From: a virus
Lineage: Duplodnaviria; Caudoviricetes
Strand: one strand, 5' to 3'
IMG/VR virus record: IMGVR_UViG_3300031519_000074
Span: 1-38,512 of that record
Length of the DNA stretch: 38,512 bases
Of the stretch, positions 19,927-37,989 are shown one piece after another. The notes under the pieces are model-generated. The model did not search any database and had not been told where the DNA came from. It saw only the letters and a program-made list of their open reading frames with translations. Made by a program: the position numbers and the translations under genes. Numbering within the stretch: position 1 is the first letter of the stretch; the number at the start of each line of letters is the position of its first letter.

Positions 19927-22158
19927 CTATTTTATTATTTTACTATTTGATCCTGTGTTATTATATTTAGAAAAACCAAAATCAATTTTTTTAACTTCTC
20001 TAGTTGTTTTTGATGCATACAAATGTCTTTGACAAGCCATTATAGCTAATCCTGAACTTATAGACGCATCAAACTTTGTCCTATTATTAATATCAAACCC
20101 CGCCCAATCTTCTAATGTTCTTTGGAAATACATTTTCCCATAGTCACCAGATTCTTTTAAGCCAACGTGGTCTTCTATATAACTTTCAATTGCAGCAGCA
20201 TGAGCCTGTTTTATATCTTCAGAAGAGTTTGGTATACCACCTAATTCTTTTTCAGTAACAGATAATTTGCTGCGTGCTTTGTCGGGTCTATTCATTGAGT
20301 AGCCTCGGTAACCCCGTCTTTTAATATGATATAATAATCTAGGCTTATTGTTTTCTGCTAATATAGGCATTCCATAAAATATCATTGCCATTAGAACATC
20401 TTCAAAAAATATTTCAGCTGTTTGTGGTCTCGCTATGTATTCTAAAAAAAATTGGCTTGAGGGAACTTCTGCTAGCATACTATAAGCGGTTAACCCATGT
20501 AGTGCCCCATTAGACCCACTGCCATCAGTCGTACCACTAATATCATAACTATCACAGCCGAAAGCACCCATGTCTTTATTACCAGGATATTTTATACCGT
20601 TCTTTATAACAATATTGTTTTGCATACTTACAGGAGGTATCCAAGATAACCTAAACCTTCCGTTCTTATTTGGTGAAAATTGTACTTCAGAATCTTTAAC
20701 TCCATTTTTCCAATTAAACGATCCAGTAGTTACATAACCCTCTTTGGTTAGGTCTTCATTAAAATCAGTTTGTTCGTATATCTTATTAAGATTAAATAAA
20801 GACTTTGCTATTTCATCTCTGAAAGCGTGCTTCTCTGTTCTTGGAAACTGTCTGTAGTATTCATTTAATCCATCGTTGTTATCTCTAAGTCCATCTGCTT
20901 CATTCTCCCAATGCTCGATAACTCCAGAGTAGATAAGCTCTCCGTCGATTCCTTCAACTGGCTTTTCAGGATTATCGAAGACAGGAAATCCATATTTATT
21001 AATGAATCCCTCGAAGTTCCATTCCATAGGTATGAACAAAGAATATAATCCACTAGCAGTCTGCCCATTGCGATTTCGCTTGTTGACGTCTGAATCATAA
21101 TATAGTTTTTTAAAATTCCCACCGCCTTTTTTAATTGCATTAGAGGTTGAACCCATCATGCATTTACCAACTATTCTTGCTCCGAGCCTAAGACACGTTT
21201 TCGTAACCCTCCAGTTGTTGAGGATGTTGTCCGGTCTCTCCCATTTACCCGATTCATCGTGGACGAGGAGCTTGAGTTTCTCTCCATCATACGAGTTGTC
21301 CCCTGTGTTCTTCCAGTCGATCGTGGTGTCAAGGCCGAGCTGGTCGGTCTCATCTGCGTTCTCCTTAATGGAGTTGCGAGTGAGTCTCTTTGACGGTACC
21401 TTGTATGATAACTCCGTCTTTGGACGTTCCATTCCGTCCTGTGTTGGTTTAAAAAAGAATGGGTAATTTGTTGATATTGGTACAACTTTGTCCGTAAACA
21501 TCTTTTTAGCATCTCCACCTGACTTTGATAAGATCCCAAATCTAGAGTCTCTAGATAATGTAGCCTGGTTAACAGTCTCTGAGCTTGCCATGAAGCTAAA
21601 CCCGGACCTTCTATTCTTAAGGTAACACATTCCATAACTTCTCGAGTCTGCACAACATGCCTCCCAGAATAAGTATAATATCCTATTTGCTTGTCGAAAG
21701 TCGGGTAACCCAATGTCAATCTTAGTCCAGTTGAGGTAGATATAGTGCGAACCGGTAATGTATTGAGCTTCACCGTTGCACATGAACCAGTGACCATCAC
21801 TACGCTTATTATACTCATTACTAATATAATCGTAGTACTTTTCTTTAATGTTTTCTGGATACTTTTTAAAATCATATAATGTTTTTATTTTATCAAGCGT
21901 CTCAGGTTTCTTAGTCCGTGTGAAAACTTGTTCCTCTGGAACATTGCTATTAGATTCAATTTGTTTTGGTTCAGGTGGTAATGCAATTTTTAAACCTTGT
22001 ATAGCATATATTTCACCTATCTGTCCGTTCTTACTTATAACGATGCAGTCTAAATCTTCATTAAATCCATATTTGAATGACTTGGATTTATTTAATTTTT
22101 TAACATACTTTTGTTGTAAGTGAGATGTTTGTACCGAGTATAAATGTTGTTTATACAT
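19927..22158 (-). CDS. terL: Terminase large subunit, 743 aa
   Basis: Walker A-like KNRRSGFS, Walker B LLVHDESGKW, motif III GST, nuclease FGCDSYD and KFDASISSG. Confidence 0.93.
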   Translation of the reverse strand: MYKQHLYSVQTSHLQQKYVKKLNKSKSFKYGFNEDLDCIVISKNGQIGEIYAIQGLKIALPPEPKQIESNSNVPEEQVFTRTKKPETLDKIKTLYDFKKYPENIKEKYYDYISNEYNKRSDGHWFMCNGEAQYITGSHYIYLNWTKIDIGLPDFRQANRILYLFWEACCADSRSYGMCYLKNRRSGFSFMASSETVNQATLSRDSRFGILSKSGGDAKKMFTDKVVPISTNYPFFFKPTQDGMERPKTELSYKVPSKRLTRNSIKENADETDQLGLDTTIDWKNTGDNSYDGEKLKLLVHDESGKWERPDNILNNWRVTKTCLRLGARIVGKCMMGSTSNAIKKGGGNFKKLYYDSDVNKRNRNGQTASGLYSLFIPMEWNFEGFINKYGFPVFDNPEKPVEGIDGELIYSGVIEHWENEADGLRDNNDGLNEYYRQFPRTEKHAFRDEIAKSLFNLNKIYEQTDFNEDLTKEGYVTTGSFNWKNGVKDSEVQFSPNKNGRFRLSWIPPVSMQNNIVIKNGIKYPGNKDMGAFGCDSYDISGTTDGSGSNGALHGLTAYSMLAEVPSSQFFLEYIARPQTAEIFFEDVLMAMIFYGMPILAENNKPRLLYHIKRRGYRGYSMNRPDKARSKLSVTEKELGGIPNSSEDIKQAHAAAIESYIEDHVGLKESGDYGKMYFQRTLEDWAGFDINNRTKFDASISSGLAIMACQRHLYASKTTREVKKIDFGFSKYNNTGSNSKIIK
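21171..21875 (-). CDS. Candidate overprinted lipoprotein in the +1 frame of terL, 234 aa
   Basis: 705 nt stop-free alternate frame; Lys-rich n-region, hydrophobic h-region, lipobox-like TGS-C32; local shift of terL to C/G-ending codons. Confidence 0.5.
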   Translation of the reverse strand: MILKSIQKTLKKSTTIILVMSIISVVMVTGSCATVKLNTLPVRTISTSTGLRLTLGYPTFDKQIGYYTYSGRHVVQTREVMECVTLRIEGPGLASWQAQRLLTRLHYLETLDLGSYQSQVEMLKRCLRTKLYQYQQITHSFLNQHRTEWNVQRRSYHTRYRQRDSLATPLRRTQMRPTSSALTPRSTGRTQGTTRMMERNSSSSSTMNRVNGRDRTTSSTTGGLRKRVLGSEQE

Positions 22159-22415
22159 TATTTAACTTGAGATTCAACACCAAAAAAATCATTGTTAGTG
22201 TCTTTGTTACTCTTGCCTGTAGCTGTAAGCTCTTCTACTTTATCTATCATAGCCATTGCGTCATCCATTGCAAGTCTATAAGCTGAAGCAGATACTTTAA
22301 CCTTTTCAGGATCTATCTCGTCAGAGTTCATTTTTTTATTCATTACTTTTATAAGCTCGTTGATTGAATTTTCAGCGGCTTCAAGTAGTAGTAGTTTTGT
22401 TTTCTTTATGTCCAT
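22158..22415 (-). CDS. Small helical protein, possible terminase small subunit, 85 aa
   Basis: Overlaps the terL start by 1 nt; helical; positional inference only. Confidence 0.45.
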   Translation of the reverse strand: MDIKKTKLLLLEAAENSINELIKVMNKKMNSDEIDPEKVKVSASAYRLAMDDAMAMIDKVEELTATGKSNKDTNNDFFGVESQVK

Positions 22416-22968
22416 AGTTGATAGTAATGTCTTTTGATAAAATTCTATATAATTTTTTATCTTCTATGTTAAACTCATATTCCGAATTAGGTGTAAACCC
22501 AACCACGTCTCCACAGGACAATCCTAAGGAGCTTAAGTAGTCATTTGTATATGTAAGCTTTCCTATTAGCTTTTGTTCGCTATCGGTGCTCCATACGTCT
22601 TTGTTTTCTAAAGGCTCCACAAAACAATACTGTATAGGACAATGCCATTTACCGTTTTGCTTGTATGCAAATATTTGCTCTTCAGAAACTGTGTATGTAT
22701 CTTCTTTTATATAGTTACCCGAGTTACGTTCGTTTCCCCTAACGTCATACCATCTACGAAATACATTGTGATGTACAATAACCTCGTTTCCGGATTCTAT
22801 AGGTGTTTTTATATTTATAGGTGCGTTAATTACAGTACCTATTCTGTTAACGAACAAATAATCTCTTTCTGTTATTTCTGTGTTAAGAATTAACTCTTTG
22901 CTGCCAACAGACACTTTATTATCGTATCGGCTATTTGTTGATATAATATAATTGTATAGTGATCTCAT
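22381..22968 (-). CDS. GroES-like protein with two tandem Cpn10-like domains, 195 aa
   Basis: Two units with GroES-like pattern: RIGTVINAP...IESGNEVIV and GKLTY...LSCGDVVGF...FNIEDKKLYRILSKDI. Confidence 0.55.
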   Translation of the reverse strand: MRSLYNYIISTNSRYDNKVSVGSKELILNTEITERDYLFVNRIGTVINAPINIKTPIESGNEVIVHHNVFRRWYDVRGNERNSGNYIKEDTYTVSEEQIFAYKQNGKWHCPIQYCFVEPLENKDVWSTDSEQKLIGKLTYTNDYLSSLGLSCGDVVGFTPNSEYEFNIEDKKLYRILSKDITINYGHKENKTTTT

Positions 22969-23197: not shown

Positions 23198-23554
23198 TTA
23201 ATATGTCCATATAGTAGTGGATGGTGCACCCGGATAACCAATACCTAAATGTATAAACCCACTTTTTCTGGAAATTCCTATTCTAGTAAACCCTATTTTA
23301 ATGGCTGCTTTAACCAATAAAAAAGTAGCCTCACCTCCAACGCACTTTATGTCTACAGCTGCACCATGAGCGTGTTCGCCTGGTTTAGCTTTGGCAGCTT
23401 CTATAGGGTGTTCTGGTGCTCTATAAGAAGAATTTATAATTATGGGAAACCCATATTCTTTTCTTAAAGCGTCCAGCTTACCTAATAAAAGGGGATCCAT
23501 TTTATCCATGTTGCCCTTAAAATCATCTTTGTCGTTGAAGTATTTTAATTTCAT
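23198..23554 (-). CDS. Peptidase M15 family endolysin candidate, 118 aa
   Basis: SSYR..HP, H.HG.AVDI, FIH zinc-binding motifs; adjacent to holin-like genes. Confidence 0.85.
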   Translation of the reverse strand: MKLKYFNDKDDFKGNMDKMDPLLLGKLDALRKEYGFPIIINSSYRAPEHPIEAAKAKPGEHAHGAAVDIKCVGGEATFLLVKAAIKIGFTRIGISRKSGFIHLGIGYPGAPSTTIWTY

Positions 23555-23709
23555 TTATTACATATTTTTTTATATATATTTATACTGGTATAAATTATAG
23601 TTAATATCAATACCGCGGCCTGTAACATTGGCGTTATACCTACTTCCTGCGTGCTAGCAACTAATGCCGTTGAATTCAATCCGTATACTTTTAAATCTGT
23701 GAATGTCAT
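23551..23709 (-). CDS. Small membrane protein (holin/antiholin-like), 52 aa, MTFTDLKVYG...AAVLILTIIYTSINIYKKICNK
   Basis: Missing from the ORF track; ATGA 4-nt overlaps with both neighbours; C-terminal TM helix with basic tail. Confidence 0.75.
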   Translation of the reverse strand: MTFTDLKVYGLNSTALVASTQEVGITPMLQAAVLILTIIYTSINIYKKICNK

Positions 23710-24122
23710 TTATGCTTGTTGTCTCCCATTATTTTTTCAGCACCTCGAGAACCGAAGTAACCTATAAAAACGATAGTTAATAATTCCTTGACCGTTTCTA
23801 GCGATTCAAGTTGTAGTCCCCAGCCAGCAACAAATGCGACTGTAAGAAAGACTAGTGTAAGTGGACGGACATTAGAAGCTAACCAGGATCCACTCCTGGA
23901 GTCTGCTACCCAACGTTTGGTTATACCGTCAAACTCATGTATCTCTTGCTCTAACTTTTTAAGAGCAATCTCTTTATCTTTTGCGGGCATGTCCGATCCA
24001 CCAATAATGGCTTTTATAACATTACCTACGGGGGTGTCCCCTGCTATGGCACCTACAACGCTAGGAATTTTCTGTAGTAGAAATTTCCCAACGTCAGTGT
24101 CTTTAAATTTTTTTTTAGACAT
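23706..24122 (-). CDS. Holin-like membrane protein (3TM holin-type), 138 aa
   Basis: RW.AD..S.SWL..NVRPL, TM helices, YFGSRG.EK C-terminal motif. Confidence 0.75.
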   Translation of the reverse strand: MSKKKFKDTDVGKFLLQKIPSVVGAIAGDTPVGNVIKAIIGGSDMPAKDKEIALKKLEQEIHEFDGITKRWVADSRSGSWLASNVRPLTLVFLTVAFVAGWGLQLESLETVKELLTIVFIGYFGSRGAEKIMGDNKHK

Positions 24123-31627: not shown

Positions 31628-32077
31628 TTATAATTTGTCTTTGTTAAATTTATCTATCGCGTTTGCGTATACTTTATCTACATAAGTTTTACGTTTGCCT
31701 ATGGCACTTCGTTTGGCGTCAATAGGCATTTCTTCTTGACATATTAATATCTTATATATCCTATTAATTAACCTCTTGCCTCGAAGAGATACTTTATATT
31801 TGTTATGGTCTCCTAAGCGACCATTACCTTTATGTATCTTTTCTACCCAGCCTTCTCTCTGTAGTCTGTAAAAGCGTTGACGGTCCCAATGATAATACAT
31901 TGTACCGTTCTGAAAATCTTTTATTGTAAAGTATTTTATAGGATCTAGATAAAATAACAATTCTAAATCTGAAATAGACATATTATTTTCTTTACAAGCC
32001 CAACGTGAAACAAGTCTATAATATTTAAGAAAATCAACCTTAAGTTCTCCTCTTTCTAAAAAGTCATTTCTGTCCAT
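31628..32077 (-). CDS. Winged-helix (MarR-like) protein, 149 aa
   Basis: SDLELLFYL...RL.REGWVEK...YKVSLRGKRLI pattern; coupled to groES. Confidence 0.5.
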   Translation of the reverse strand: MDRNDFLERGELKVDFLKYYRLVSRWACKENNMSISDLELLFYLDPIKYFTIKDFQNGTMYYHWDRQRFYRLQREGWVEKIHKGNGRLGDHNKYKVSLRGKRLINRIYKILICQEEMPIDAKRSAIGKRKTYVDKVYANAIDKFNKDKL

Positions 32078-32337
32078 TACAACACTATAATAACATCTTG
32101 CTCTTGTATAACTTTAAATATTTTTTGTTCAATCTCAATATTATGACCAGCAATACGGTCATAGTATATCTTGTCGCCCTCTACAATACCTTCAACACGC
32201 ACACCTACTGACTCAACGTCAGCAGTGCGGTATCTTATATCTTCTCTATGATTTTCTGCTAAAAGCAGTCCACCTTCTGTTTTTTGAATTTTTTCCTTTA
32301 TTTCGGAAATTATAATGTAGTTACCTATTGCTTTCAT
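32077..32337 (-). CDS. groES: Co-chaperonin GroES (Cpn10), 86 aa
   Basis: MKAIGNYIII, KTEGGLLL mobile loop, V.SVG, EGDKIYY, QDVI. Confidence 0.9.
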   Translation of the reverse strand: MKAIGNYIIISEIKEKIQKTEGGLLLAENHREDIRYRTADVESVGVRVEGIVEGDKIYYDRIAGHNIEIEQKIFKVIQEQDVIIVL

Positions 32338-33919
32338 AATCTCTAATATTTGAAATTACACAATCAGTTGATAGAATAGTTGTTGCTACCGAAACTGCAT
32401 TTTGTAGTGCAGACTTAGTAACTAGCACCGGATCAATAATACCTGCTTTACGCATGTCTTTAGTTTTCCCGTCTGTTACGTCTACTCCTATTCCCCATTT
32501 ATCTAAGGTTTCATAATCTGCGGGATCTAGCCCTGCATTAGTTAAAATCTTATTAAATGGTGAAAGCAATGATCTTTTTAAAATTTCCACACCAATCTCT
32601 TCCCCTTTGTTTGCTGTTGTAGCCTTTAAAGAGTTCGCTAAAAAGCATAACGCTGCACCGCCTCCAGGAAGTATTCCTTCCTTCTTAGCAGCACGAACTG
32701 CGTGTATAGCATCATCTACTCGGTCTTTCTTTTCAGAAACCTCTACTTCGGTGTCACCACCTACATAAACAATAGATACACCCCCGTTTAAAATTGCTAA
32801 CCTACTTTCTAAGTGAGGTCGCATAACGTGGTGTTCGTCTTCGTCTAATTGAGACTGTAAATACTCTACGCGTTCCTTAACTCCTTCCGCTGCTTCCGCA
32901 ATAGCTAGAGTAGTCCCGTCGTTATCTATGATGGCCTTGTCGGCTCTTCCTAACACTTCAGGGGTGATATTATCTAGAGAGTCTCCTAAACCTTCATCAA
33001 TAACAGTAGCACCCGTTAGAAGGGCAATATCATCAAGTACATCCTTCCGTTTCAGTCCGAATGATGGAGGATCAATAATATTGCACTTAATATTGCCTTT
33101 TACGTGGTTCATCGCAAGAGCCGATACAACCTGCTGATCGCAAGGGGCAATGAGTAGCAACGCTCGATTGGACTTGATTGCAAACTCTAATATTGTTTGT
33201 ATGCGTCTAACGTTTGAAACTTCAGACGAACATAAAAATATAAGTGGCTTATCTAGCTCACTTAATTCTTTTTCTTTATTTGTATGAAAATACATACTTT
33301 TGGTTGTGGACTTAATGTGTGTTCCATCAACCGCTTCAATGTAGGTTTCATTACTCGGACTTGTTTCCATTGTAACTACACCGTTATCACCAGCTAATTT
33401 AAAGGCTTCAGCAATAAAGTCTCCAAGTAGAGGATCGTTATTGGCTGATATGCGCGACACATGATTTAATCGTTTGTCATCTACATCTACACCTTTCTTA
33501 GTAAGCGCATCTACCGTAAGTTTAGTAAACGCAAGCATACCGTTTTTAACATCACGAAACGAGTACTTCTCCGCATCTAAGTCAAAGTAATTTTTAATTA
33601 CCGACTGTGCTAATACCGTTGAGGTTGTTGTACCATCACCAGCTTTTGATGCTGTTTGTCTAGATGCTTGTTTAAGCATAGTTACACCTAAGTTCTCTAC
33701 CGGGTCTTCTAGGTTTATATAGTTTGCTACGGTTACACCATCCTTTGTAACGTGAGGGTTACCGAAGTCATCTTCTAATACTACCGTACGACCAGACGCA
33801 CCTAGTGTGCTGCCTACTGCTTCTGCTAATTTGTTTATTCCTGAGATTAGTCCGTCTTTAGCTTCTTTCTTAAAGCTTAGTTCTTTGACTATCTTTGGGG
33901 ATCCGAATTGTATTGCCAT
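32321..33919 (-). CDS. groEL: Chaperonin GroEL (Cpn60), 532 aa
   Basis: VTKDGVTVA, AGDGTTT, ISAN.D, EKKDRVDDA, EGILPGGG, GIIDP..VT..AL.NA.SVA. Confidence 0.97.
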   Translation of the reverse strand: MAIQFGSPKIVKELSFKKEAKDGLISGINKLAEAVGSTLGASGRTVVLEDDFGNPHVTKDGVTVANYINLEDPVENLGVTMLKQASRQTASKAGDGTTTSTVLAQSVIKNYFDLDAEKYSFRDVKNGMLAFTKLTVDALTKKGVDVDDKRLNHVSRISANNDPLLGDFIAEAFKLAGDNGVVTMETSPSNETYIEAVDGTHIKSTTKSMYFHTNKEKELSELDKPLIFLCSSEVSNVRRIQTILEFAIKSNRALLLIAPCDQQVVSALAMNHVKGNIKCNIIDPPSFGLKRKDVLDDIALLTGATVIDEGLGDSLDNITPEVLGRADKAIIDNDGTTLAIAEAAEGVKERVEYLQSQLDEDEHHVMRPHLESRLAILNGGVSIVYVGGDTEVEVSEKKDRVDDAIHAVRAAKKEGILPGGGAALCFLANSLKATTANKGEEIGVEILKRSLLSPFNKILTNAGLDPADYETLDKWGIGVDVTDGKTKDMRKAGIIDPVLVTKSALQNAVSVATTILSTDCVISNIRDYESNR

Positions 33920-33958: not shown

Positions 33959-34312
33959 TTAGCAGTTCCATTTACGGCGTGCTGCTTTACCACGCTCTGA
34001 TTTCCATGATTTAGATCTAGCACAAAAGCCTTTACGTCTTTTAGCTGCCTTGCTTCCTTTCTTAAGTTTAGAGGGAGGCGTTGTTACGGCAGTTTTTAAT
34101 TTGCTGCCTGGATTGTCTTTTCTATACTTAGCTACACCTTTAGCTGTCATTCCACCGCCAGCTTTACCACCCGTGCCACTGCCTGATTTAACCTTAGCGT
34201 AGTAGCCTTTAGATTTTTTACGAGATGGTGCTTTGCTTTTCTTCCGTGTTAATGGAGTATCCGCTGCACAAGTACATGTGGCATGCTTCGCTGTTAATGG
34301 TATTGCTTTCAT
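33959..34312 (-). CDS. Small highly basic protein, 117 aa
   Basis: GGMTAKGVAKYRKDNPGSKLKTAVT...RRKGFCAR...RRKWNC, a motif recalled from marine phages. Confidence 0.75.
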   Translation of the reverse strand: MKAIPLTAKHATCTCAADTPLTRKKSKAPSRKKSKGYYAKVKSGSGTGGKAGGGMTAKGVAKYRKDNPGSKLKTAVTTPPSKLKKGSKAAKRRKGFCARSKSWKSERGKAARRKWNC

Positions 34313-34548
34313 GTAGTATTGTATCTCTTAGTTCCTTTACCGTGACCACCTCTATTAGCTGCAACGCTAACAAATTTTTTCTTGTTGTGATCCCAGTCTT
34401 TACCTTTTATATTTATCCCCTTCTTGATTGCATCGCGTCTTTTCTTTTGTGTCTCCGCCTTCATAGCTCTACGCCGGGGAGTTAAAGCATATGCAAGGTC
34501 ACGGGCCGCTTTTTTCTTACGAGCCGCTGGAGATAGCTTCTGTGCCAT
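34309..34548 (-). CDS. Small basic protein with minimal HNH-like motif, 79 aa
   Basis: GKDWDH...VSVAANRG; ATGA overlap with the downstream gene. Confidence 0.65.
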   Translation of the reverse strand: MAQKLSPAARKKKAARDLAYALTPRRRAMKAETQKKRRDAIKKGINIKGKDWDHNKKKFVSVAANRGGHGKGTKRYNTT

Positions 34549-34685
34549 TACTTATTGTAACCGCCGTAGCTAGATTTGTTAGGTTTTTTTGATCCACTCA
34601 TTTTTTTAAGTGGTGCTATTGTAGCTGATCTACCTGCCATTTTTTTAAATGCCCCAGGTACTACTGTTTTTCCTTTTGTTCCCAT
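34548..34685 (-). CDS. Small basic protein, 45 aa (start corrected to MGTKGK)
   Basis: ATG at 34685 lies 4 nt after the upstream stop and removes the overlap. Confidence 0.65.
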   Translation of the reverse strand: MGTKGKTVVPGAFKKMAGRSATIAPLKKMSGSKKPNKSSYGGYNK

Positions 34686-34689
34686 AATA

Positions 34690-34887
34690 TTATTTTTTTC
34701 TTGAATAAGGTTTACTTTTACCACCACAAAATCTACGAATAGGGTTGCCACTACGTGATTCTCCGATCGGTTGTAAGGGATTCTTTGGCTTTTTTTCCTT
34801 AAGAATTTTACCTTTTATAGAGTTCCTCCCTACTTTCTTTAGTTTTTCAGCATTTAGTCTTTTTAATTCTTTTTCTGCGTCTGTCAT
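34690..34887 (-). CDS. Small basic protein, 65 aa
   Basis: Tightly packed in the operon; Lys/Arg-rich. Confidence 0.65.
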   Translation of the reverse strand: MTDAEKELKRLNAEKLKKVGRNSIKGKILKEKKPKNPLQPIGESRSGNPIRRFCGGKSKPYSRKK

Positions 34888-34891
34888 GGCG

Positions 34892-35146
34892 TTATTTTTT
34901 CTTTTTAATAGATGAAGTGCGCTTACCCATACCTGTGCGTTTCTTCTCTGATACAGCTTTTCGCTTTTGAGAAGAACTCATTTCGTTCCATGCTACAGGT
35001 GTAGACTTTGATATTCTAACCGAGGGTCTGCACTTCTTTACTTTTTTGTTCTTAGCAGATCCGCAGGCATTACCTTTTTCGTCGGTCCATTTTTCTTTAA
35101 ACCAACGTTTAAGGTTTGCTCCTTTTTTTGTTTTGCTTACTGCCAT
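34892..35146 (-). CDS. Small basic protein, 84 aa
   Basis: LKRWFKEKW.D..G..CG......KCRPS.R.S..TP motif recalled from marine phages. Confidence 0.75.
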   Translation of the reverse strand: MAVSKTKKGANLKRWFKEKWTDEKGNACGSAKNKKVKKCRPSVRISKSTPVAWNEMSSSQKRKAVSEKKRTGMGKRTSSIKKKK

Positions 35147-35151
35147 TATGT

Positions 35152-35568
35152 TTACTCTTTATTTAATGCTTTTTTAGCTAATGCTCTGTCATCAAAATCC
35201 AATGCTGCTTTAAGTATGATTTTATCCATAACCGCATCTTGATTGTCTAGTATCTGCTTTTGCAGATCGATGATCATATGCTCTAAGTTATCCTTAGCTG
35301 CAACTAGATGTTCTATTTGATTGCTTTTCTTTTCTACTTCTGTTTTAAGCGCATTTACGTCATCCGGTTTAGATCCGGTGATAGTAGACACTACTAATCC
35401 AATAGAAGCTGATATAGTACCTATGAGCATCATCACAACCTCTTTGTTGCTTTCTAGCACTGGGTACTTCATCATTATAAATATGATGGACATAACTAAT
35501 AGGAATATAAATAACGATCCTATATAATGCCTTAACTCTTTAGCGACTCCGTTAGTGGGTAATTTCAT
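35152..35568 (-). CDS. Membrane protein, two TM helices plus coiled coil, 138 aa
   Basis: Hydrophobic IGSLFIFLLVMSIIFIMM and VVMMLIGTISASIGLVV segments; heptad-like C-terminus. Confidence 0.7.
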   Translation of the reverse strand: MKLPTNGVAKELRHYIGSLFIFLLVMSIIFIMMKYPVLESNKEVVMMLIGTISASIGLVVSTITGSKPDDVNALKTEVEKKSNQIEHLVAAKDNLEHMIIDLQKQILDNQDAVMDKIILKAALDFDDRALAKKALNKE

Positions 35569-37572: not shown

Positions 37573-37818
37573 TTACTTTTTCTTCTTCTTGGTAGCAGCC
37601 TCTAAGAATCCTCTTTCATATTCTAACTGCTTCTCCATATCAAGGATGCGATCCTCAAGATCGTTAATTACTTTTATCTTCTTATCTAATCTATCATGCA
37701 CCGTCGTAAGCTCACTCTTAATAGCCGTGAACTCAGCGAATATGCCACCAGCTGTAAATACAGCTACAAGCAAAGATAACACAACAGACATGTTGTTCTT
37801 TATAAATGTATCCGGCAT
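37573..37818 (-). CDS. Membrane-anchored coiled-coil protein, 81 aa
   Basis: N-terminal TM (VVLSLLVAVFTAGGIF), coiled coil, poly-Lys end. Confidence 0.7.
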   Translation of the reverse strand: MPDTFIKNNMSVVLSLLVAVFTAGGIFAEFTAIKSELTTVHDRLDKKIKVINDLEDRILDMEKQLEYERGFLEAATKKKKK

Positions 37819-37833
37819 AATAGTTAAATTGTA

Positions 37834-37989
37834 TTATTTCTTTTTCTTCTTAGCAACAGGCTTCTTTTTAACAACCTTCTTCTTCTTAGGCTTAGACTTC
37901 TTTTTTCTTTCTAATGCAGACTTAAGTTTGTCTGCGGCTACTCCCATGAGTACTTGTTTAGCTACGGCTGCAATTACTGGTGCTGGCAT
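37834..37989 (-). CDS. Lys-rich histone-H1-like small protein, 51 aa
   Basis: MPAPVIAAVAKQVLMGVAADKLKSALERKKKSKPKKKKVVKKKPVAKKKKK; below the ORF-track cutoff; first gene after the non-coding region. Confidence 0.7.
   Translation of the reverse strand: MPAPVIAAVAKQVLMGVAADKLKSALERKKKSKPKKKKVVKKKPVAKKKKK

Follow-up and report, generated by a model that had tools for sequence, protein, structure and literature searches.

The virus record IMGVR_UViG_3300031519_000074 (Duplodnaviria; Caudoviricetes) raises the question of whether its gene for the terminase large subunit (terL, encoding TerL) holds a second protein-coding gene in another reading frame and, if so, what the product would do. The record, a linear virus contig of 38.5 kb, is ~60% complete and was analyzed over its whole length of 38,512 nucleotides (nt), here called the window. 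terL, the older frame, occupies 19927..22158 on the minus strand, encodes 743 amino acids (aa), and was identified by PHROG 6681 (E 1.9e-158); searches of TerL against Pfam and PDB sequences gave no matches. The original prediction, made from the letters of the window, was of a 234-codon stop-free open reading frame (ORF) in the +1 frame of terL that may code for a lipoprotein. The ORF list confirmed its coordinates (21171..21875, minus), its ATG start, and its sequence of 234 aa, which spans TerL codons 95-329; the hidden ATG lies 283 nt after the terL ATG (22158), hence in the +1 frame. From the frame count, null runs, and relatives described below, the hidden frame is almost certainly a real protein-coding gene.

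The open frame in terL and in diverged relatives

The +1 frame of terL contains 33 stops in the whole gene and none in codons 92-328. A run of 237 codons was not reached in any of 20,000 resamplings with genome codon usage (maximum 175; 13.2 stops expected) or in any of 20,000 shuffles of terL's own codons (maximum 205; 11.3 stops expected), and the analytic chance of the stop-free run was log10 P = -9.3; the ORF is thus longer than chance allows, as had been predicted. The longest +1 run in the 34 other genes of the window was 71 codons. The prediction had also described a switch of terL to C/G-ending codons under the tail of the hidden protein (21180..21445, minus), and this was found: the GC content of third codon positions (GC3) was 0.65 there (TerL codons 238-326), 0.40 over codons 95-237, and 0.25 outside, and TerL 264-328 had no +1 stop where 7.3 were expected. 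The hidden ORF covers both of the TerL motifs that we take to be Walker A-like (KNRRSGFS, TerL 181-188) and Walker B-like (LLVHDESGK, TerL 297-305), starting ~85 codons ahead of the first. An antisense or +2 frame was considered as an explanation and rejected, those frames being full of stops.

The terL genes of relatives were taken from two scans and from GenBank records; 161 of 167 covered the region (six were dropped), and 119 were non-redundant at <90% identity. Within a core window of TerL 113-224, which was picked after the data had been seen, 78 of the 119 had no +1 stop, where 0.52 such genes were expected from each gene's codon use; this bears out the depletion of +1 stops. The remaining 41 carried 3.93 stops vs 4.03 expected, i.e., the neutral rate, and outside the overlap the open and closed groups alike were near the expected number. 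The gap between the two states held up after further scans: 194 of 316 loci (duplicates included) were stop-free, 7 had one stop, and 115 had at least two. On a tree built from TerL 335-743 (118 rows), the open or closed state changed 12 times (shuffled mean, 34), and clades with open frames only spanned 9.8 changes per site of TerL divergence. Because the state clusters on the tree and the open-only clades have diverged, the tree indicates that the open frame has been maintained over a long time and lost or gained repeatedly. Among relatives its 3' end varies from TerL codon 225 to 329, and that end is bounded at TerL 334, where Met-Met spells TGA (a stop in 79/81).

A profile search of 1.84 billion proteins returned 148 matches, all 148 being terL +1 read-throughs with no free-standing homologue, and the hidden protein had no match in Pfam, PHROG, or GenBank phages. 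Six GenBank relatives had no long +1 frame (longest run, 39-87 codons). Because these relatives lack the frame and all profile matches are read-throughs of terL, the hidden frame is shown, as far as sequence comparison reaches, to be younger than TerL, and no free-standing form was found. Literature searches, with light coverage of subscription journals, found no description of the hidden gene.

Selection was measured on 217 non-redundant of 311 sequences; because closed relatives served as the seeds of two of the scans, the figures given here do not represent population frequencies. The 217 fell into three groups: clade A, which contains the record (23 members, the same 23 on a tree built outside the overlap), other open frames, or group B (102), and closed frames (92). 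Synonymous divergence was obtained from disjoint close pairs (12 in A, 39 in B, and 27 closed). Over TerL 95-145 it was 0.65-0.84 of background in open pairs and 1.06-1.21 in closed pairs, and over TerL 113-145 open pairs stood at 0.78 and 0.65 of background and closed pairs at 1.21. The predicted reduction in synonymous variation was accordingly present over the leader; over the mature part it was absent. Contigs from four RNA runs (two studies) overlie the region, such contigs being silent on strand, frame, and level, and contigs from four DNA runs over the region were a mix of related phages.

Start codon, leader, and mature chain

Cultured kin of the record are flavobacterial phages at 31-45% TerL identity (elemo, phi13:2, phi38:1, and Gundel), and the host is for this reason presumed to be a flavobacterium, a host group in which a Shine-Dalgarno sequence is not needed. 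The context upstream of the hidden ATG (21876..21895, minus) is A-rich, and the hidden start scored 4.1, compared with a median of 4.2 for 513 ordinary starts and a 95th percentile of 3.4 for other +1 ATGs. A-rich TerL codons contribute to this score, and position -3 is T, the favoured base being A (PMC6847099). An upstream in-frame ATG was present in 23/23 members of clade A, 101/102 of group B, and 62/92 closed frames, and lay at TerL codon 95 in 21/23 clade A members. Because the hidden ATG is conserved, entry by frameshift from TerL would not be needed.

The predicted leader consists of a Lys-rich n-region (residues 1-15, 21831..21875, minus), a hydrophobic h-region (residues 16-29, 21789..21830, minus), and a lipobox-like T-G-S-C (21780..21791, minus), in which Cys32 is TGT at 21782-21780 and is spelled by TerL Met126-Cys127; a basic n-region and a hydrophobic h-region are the features looked for in a lipoprotein. 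Mean +1 hydropathy over TerL 111-123 had a median of 2.6 in clade A vs 0.1 and -0.4 in the other groups. A value of at least 2 was found in 22/23 members of clade A at TerL 111-123, in 100/102 of group B at TerL 130-139, and in 6/92 closed frames. A hydrophobic leader was present in 122 of 125 open frames, at different positions in A and B and never at both together.

The codons of TerL are biased around each leader. TerL site 126 changed 74 times elsewhere on the tree and not once in clade A (8.3 changes expected), where the fixed Met gives Cys32 in the +1 frame, and TerL Phe125 was TTC (+1 Ser) in 21/23 clade A members vs 12/89 closed frames. In group B, the invariant TerL Thr135 was ACT (+1 Leu) in 101/102 sequences, compared with 29/82 closed and 0/23 in clade A, and Leu142 was TTG or CTG (+1 Cys) in 89/102 vs 35/92 closed. 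Compared with the consensus [LVI][ASTVI][GAS]C, the T/I-G-S-C of the lipobox fits at -1 and has a Gly at -2 that falls outside the strict form; deviations such as FVGC are listed in the spanin survey (PMC6139136).

A cut by signal peptidase I or an uncleaved inner-membrane anchor would yield a polar chain without lipid, acting on the envelope or on lysis timing. Small residues are selected at -3/-1 of S-C-A|T (Ala 96%, Ser 91%) and of T-C-S|G, the leader is long (31 residues), the group B lipobox is non-canonical, and the second Cys is absent from 13/102 group B frames. Such a cut, however, would need neither the frozen TerL Met126 nor the Cys-making Leu142 codons, and the two leaders were placed separately, each ending in Cys. 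We regard it as fairly unlikely. The predicted lipoprotein start therefore stands as far as a selected signal and a selected Cys go, with the signal peptidase I reading of the leader as a less likely alternative; export of the hidden protein is very likely and its lipidation probable.

The same codons bear on an explanation without any second protein, in which the frame stays open through a GC-richer patch, an RNA element, or a codon accident passed on by descent. GC3 is elevated over the whole region, the states cluster on the tree, and T-ending codons by default make a +1 frame hydrophobic. Open-only clades nevertheless span the divergence given above, closed frames are neutral, and the position of the leader is group-specific. 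In the clade A leader (TerL 110-119), C occupies 7% of two-fold sites, the leader thus retaining T-ending codons, whereas the next codons turn to C (60%). This explanation is largely refuted and hardly credible.

The mature part (21174..21779, minus) was polar by composition, without a membrane helix in a helix scan, and predicted to be unstructured by the structure model. Its 203 residues include T 29, R 27, and S 20, in agreement with the Ser/Thr/Arg-rich tail that had been described. Residues ILVMF made up 29% of open mature parts vs 42% in closed frames, and S/T/P 18-19% vs 10%; these comparisons show selection for a polar mature part. Its length was 85-206 aa among open frames. The conserved W/G/C residues derive from TerL Trp and Met codons, with Cys83 and Cys126 of the hidden protein forced by Met codons. 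AlphaFold gave the hidden protein a mean predicted local distance difference test score (pLDDT) of 45, with <50 for 187/234 residues and confidence only at the N-terminal helix; a single-sequence model of TerL had a pLDDT of 30. A 'cationic peptide' was considered and rejected, as net charge over TerL 146-224 was not above the default.

The frame, the start codon, the leader, and the polar make-up are thus shown by comparison among relatives to be under selection, and the product is probably an exported, probably lipidated, unstructured chain. Improbable open length, selection in diverged relatives, and a distribution narrower than that of terL, which mark overprinted genes, were all found. 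De novo overprinted viral and bacterial genes likewise place a new frame over an old structured gene and yield an unstructured product without an outside homologue, a disorder bias quoted for overprinted genes in PMC6139136. Unlike those genes, the hidden frame sits in an essential core motor gene of a double-stranded DNA phage, has been repeatedly lost, has a leader that shifted between clades, and fixed amino-acid changes in the host TerL. As a natural example of a gene born by overprinting in an essential, slowly evolving phage gene, it is well controlled: ~90 relatives without the frame serve as built-in controls, the frame was lost repeatedly, its leader moved, and the cost to TerL is visible. 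Codon use and substitution rates of terL, a standard marker, are distorted in this abundant group. The original prediction had held that nested lipoprotein genes were known inside spanin genes but not inside a packaging ATPase, a view on nesting that requires correction: T7 19.2 and 19.3 (NC_001604) are likewise annotated as +1-frame ORFs nested in a gene for the terminase large subunit. Those are hypothetical proteins of 85 and 57 aa in an unrelated terminase, with no signal peptide and no lipobox, whereas the hidden ORF has 234 aa and measured selection on frame, start, and leader.

Association with lysis lipoproteins and possible function

Closed relatives mostly carry ordinary lipoprotein genes in their lysis clusters. 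Some closed freshwater-type relatives have u-spanin-shaped genes (signal, Cys, and C-terminal helix) beside endolysins (L184, L278, L280, and L185), and others have a membrane-coiled-coil and lipoprotein pair (i/o-spanin-shaped) beside endolysins. Still other closed relatives have a family of 130-aa lipoproteins, whose lipobox is x-S-C-G/A and whose tail is rich in N/Y/P/S. Of the 30 records in which this family was present, 20 had closed frames (19/23 non-redundant), compared with 41/119 closed in unseeded scans; this sample was assembled from 30 searched records, of which one lacked terL and two were cut, together with three already known.

The pooled sample consisted of 56 records (52 non-redundant) after six more had been dropped as partial, frameshifted, or without terL. 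The 52 comprised 25 closed frames with a lipoprotein, 4 closed without, 8 open with, and 15 open without (Fisher p 1.8e-4, ignoring kinship and how records were found). On strong branches there were 6 independent contrasts, with 4.6-4.8 in the same direction and 0 in the opposite one. Two close sisters illustrate the pattern: G039 (97% complete) has an open frame and no lipoprotein, and G047 has the lipoprotein, an intact leader, and two stops near 196-198, which is what decay of the hidden gene in the presence of an ordinary lipoprotein would produce. Within clade A, neither this window nor G008 (65% complete) shows an ordinary lysis-cluster lipoprotein gene. The frame state is thus associated with ordinary lysis lipoproteins, as the predicted tie to lysis genes implied. 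The association is real, if loose, and hints that the hidden gene is redundant with a lysis-cluster lipoprotein, itself of putative function; mutual exclusion is a tendency, not a rule.

This association also bears on whether the product matters at all. Translation of an export-targeted frame might tether the terL-portal message to the membrane or tune TerL output through ribosome traffic, the protein itself being incidental. Selection is seen only on openness, start, leader, and polarity, and the 3' end varies, which fits such a role. The selected Cys, and the tendency of genomes that lost the frame to carry an ordinary lipoprotein gene at another site, would go unexplained, and we consider such a role very unlikely.

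Our tentative explanation, held at a little under an even chance, is that the hidden gene is overprinted and encodes an unstructured envelope protein with a lipid anchor, which takes the place of the ordinary lipoprotein of the lysis cluster in outer-membrane breakdown. Its translation would start on the late terL transcript, at the ATG in TerL codon 95, and the product would be exported by Sec, lipidated at Cys32, and cleaved by signal peptidase II. The surface lipoprotein export signal of Bacteroidota is K-(D/E)2 or Q-A-(D/E)2 after the Cys (PMC5080379); this acidic signal is absent in the window (C-A-T-V-K-L-N-T) and in clade reads, and for this reason the protein is placed, provisionally, on the periplasmic face of the outer membrane. 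There it may act as an o-spanin-like tether, for which the anchor, the length (at least ~85-100 residues), and hydrophilicity would matter and the exact sequence would not, a role suggested by gene co-occurrence only. A lysis role as such is evenly poised. The hidden protein is not filed as a spanin, yet it likely works like one. In its fullest form, which is possible but which on balance we doubt, a widespread set of aquatic flavobacterial phages wrote an outer-membrane lysis lipoprotein de novo over the ATPase half of TerL, recoded TerL residues for its signal twice and at separate sites, and swapped it in both directions with ordinary spanin-type genes, making it a sequence-indifferent spanin substitute.

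Several observations weigh against the lysis lipoprotein. The -2 Gly and the -1 Thr of group B are outside the strict lipobox, and signal peptidase I could likewise cut at S-C-A|T (clade A) and at T-C-S|G (group B). Synonymous divergence over TerL 146-328 was not lowered (ratios of 1.05-1.58 in open vs 1.05-1.18 in closed pairs), although more even codon use could hide weak constraint there, and no mature site was conserved beyond what TerL forces; both would be odd for a protein that binds an i-spanin. Net charge per 100 residues over TerL 146-224 was 7.2 and 6.0 in open frames vs a default of 7.6 in closed ones. A sign test over the contrasts was not significant (median p 0.0625). Both genes occur together in 8/52 non-redundant records (11/56 of all), and neither occurs in 4 related records with a DUF5675 endolysin, including G002 at 98% complete, whose two large proteins with leaders resembling those of lipoproteins were, as a matter of judgement, counted as 'none'. 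Of the 56 records, 27 were found via the lipoprotein itself, and the absence calls are heuristic, often on records 50-85% complete, the window included. The 130-aa family is itself only a putative lysis factor, and the 81-aa candidate partner described below was present in only 6 of the loci gathered (4 distinct lineages).

The same lipoprotein could alternatively sit on the inside of the phage receptor or of an outer-membrane transporter and block it, which would exclude superinfecting phages or keep progeny from being bound by cell debris, as do the lipoproteins T5 Llp and phi80/N15 Cor. The leader and Cys are selected, the hidden gene coexists with an ordinary lipoprotein in the 8 records above, some of the alternating lipoproteins are of putative function, and an aromatic-rich exported protein, possibly of outer-membrane type and without a family match, lies in the same cluster. 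Receptor blockers, however, are small and folded and make specific contacts, whereas the hidden protein has no fold at its pLDDT and no conserved mature site; it belongs to no Pfam or PHROG family that would indicate such a function by homology, and the alternating genes adjoin endolysins and are in part u-spanin-shaped. No evidence was found for the superinfection-exclusion factor that the original prediction had offered as its second option, and receptor blocking is unlikely.

If the hidden protein is compared with known spanins, lambda Rz1 in Rz and T7 18.7 in 18.5 are likewise out-of-frame nested lipoprotein-type genes with a largely unstructured mature part in a late-gene context (PMC6139136). 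The host gene of the hidden frame is a packaging motor, whereas that of the embedded o-spanins is the partner i-spanin; its mature part has 203 aa vs 40 aa in Rz1 (PMC6139136), five times longer, and, unlike theirs, it has 3% Pro and no proline stretch. It also lacks a linked i-spanin: it is embedded in terL, and the nearest candidate partner is a weak match ~15.7 kb off, where the largest separation of i- and o-spanin genes in the survey is ~1 kb (PMC6139136). This candidate (37573..37818, minus; PHROG 739 Rz-like spanin, E 0.0033) encodes 81 aa with an N-terminal membrane helix and a coiled coil, making it a possible, unproven i-spanin-like partner; its homologues directly precede terS/terL in L016, L017, and L022. 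The original prediction had seen no obvious spanin for the holin/M15 cassette; on a record ~60% complete that also encodes this candidate, such an absence is provisional. The u-spanins (T1 gp11 type; PMC6139136) share the N-terminal lipoprotein signal and have a C-terminal membrane helix that the hidden protein lacks, such a helix being found in 0/125 open frames; a u-spanin is annotated in flavophage Ingeline (PMC8776804). The survey counts 91/677 phages without a recognised spanin (PMC6139136). If the lysis link is true, hidden frames would be a way in which 'spanin-less' phages conceal spanins, answering why many phages appear to lack them, and other frames of non-lysis genes would be the place to look.

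Neighbourhood and other observations

terL is followed by a P22-like portal gene (weak Pfam match) and preceded by a GroES-like gene, an M15 peptidase endolysin (23198..23554, minus; Pfam PF08291, PHROG 894 endolysin), and two holin-like genes, one of 52 aa (23551..23709, minus; PHROG 920 holin, weak, E 0.0031) and a holin of 138 aa (23706..24122, minus; PHROG 3427, E 3.7e-14). The GroES-like (86 aa) and GroEL-like (532 aa) genes were labelled by eye and lie at 22381-22968 and 32077-33919 (minus), respectively; a second GroES-like gene of 195 aa precedes terS (PHROG 13932). The order GroES-like gene, terL, P22-like portal is shared with the group 2 putative Flavobacteriaceae phages as described in PMC5332604, and the window also has a GroEL-like gene; the record was assigned to this group by resemblance. 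A promoter and terminator scan gave signals at or below shuffle level.

Small ORFs very rich in Lys/Arg, common across the phage group, are present at 33959-35146 and 37834-37989 (minus). The gene at 35152-35568 (minus) encodes 138 aa that include two membrane helices and end in a coiled coil; its homologues in L430 and L455 lie near a lysis-type cluster. In relatives, a recurring cluster far downstream of terL consists of a 340-410-aa exported protein, a 91-96-aa membrane-coiled-coil protein, a thioredoxin-like exported protein, and then an endolysin, M15 or DUF5675 (L330:15381-19735, L334:11861-14774, L367:14005-18321, and others). The first protein is possibly of outer-membrane type, the thioredoxin-like label was given by eye, and the first three have no Pfam family. 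This cluster was rejected as a discriminator, being found with open and closed frames alike.

A lipoprotein family of 120-160 aa (L523:19414-19857, L525-L604) with the motif LAVTxEGD and an N/Y/P/S-rich tail lies beside lysis genes, with 108 matches in viral contigs and no Pfam family. In G039 (L503:3625-4800), an exported 391-aa protein opens with an MKLWKIVLF leader shared with the lipoprotein family, a hint of a deletion or a swap of leaders in a genome without the lipoprotein gene. Matches to terL were split over several frames in G028:28873-31066 and G029:41117-43213, which may reflect either faulty assembly or genuine breaks. The TerL proteins of elemo, Panino, and phi38:1 (L083, L084, and L086) have 876-879 aa, with an N-terminus ~130 aa longer that is possibly a fused small-subunit region.

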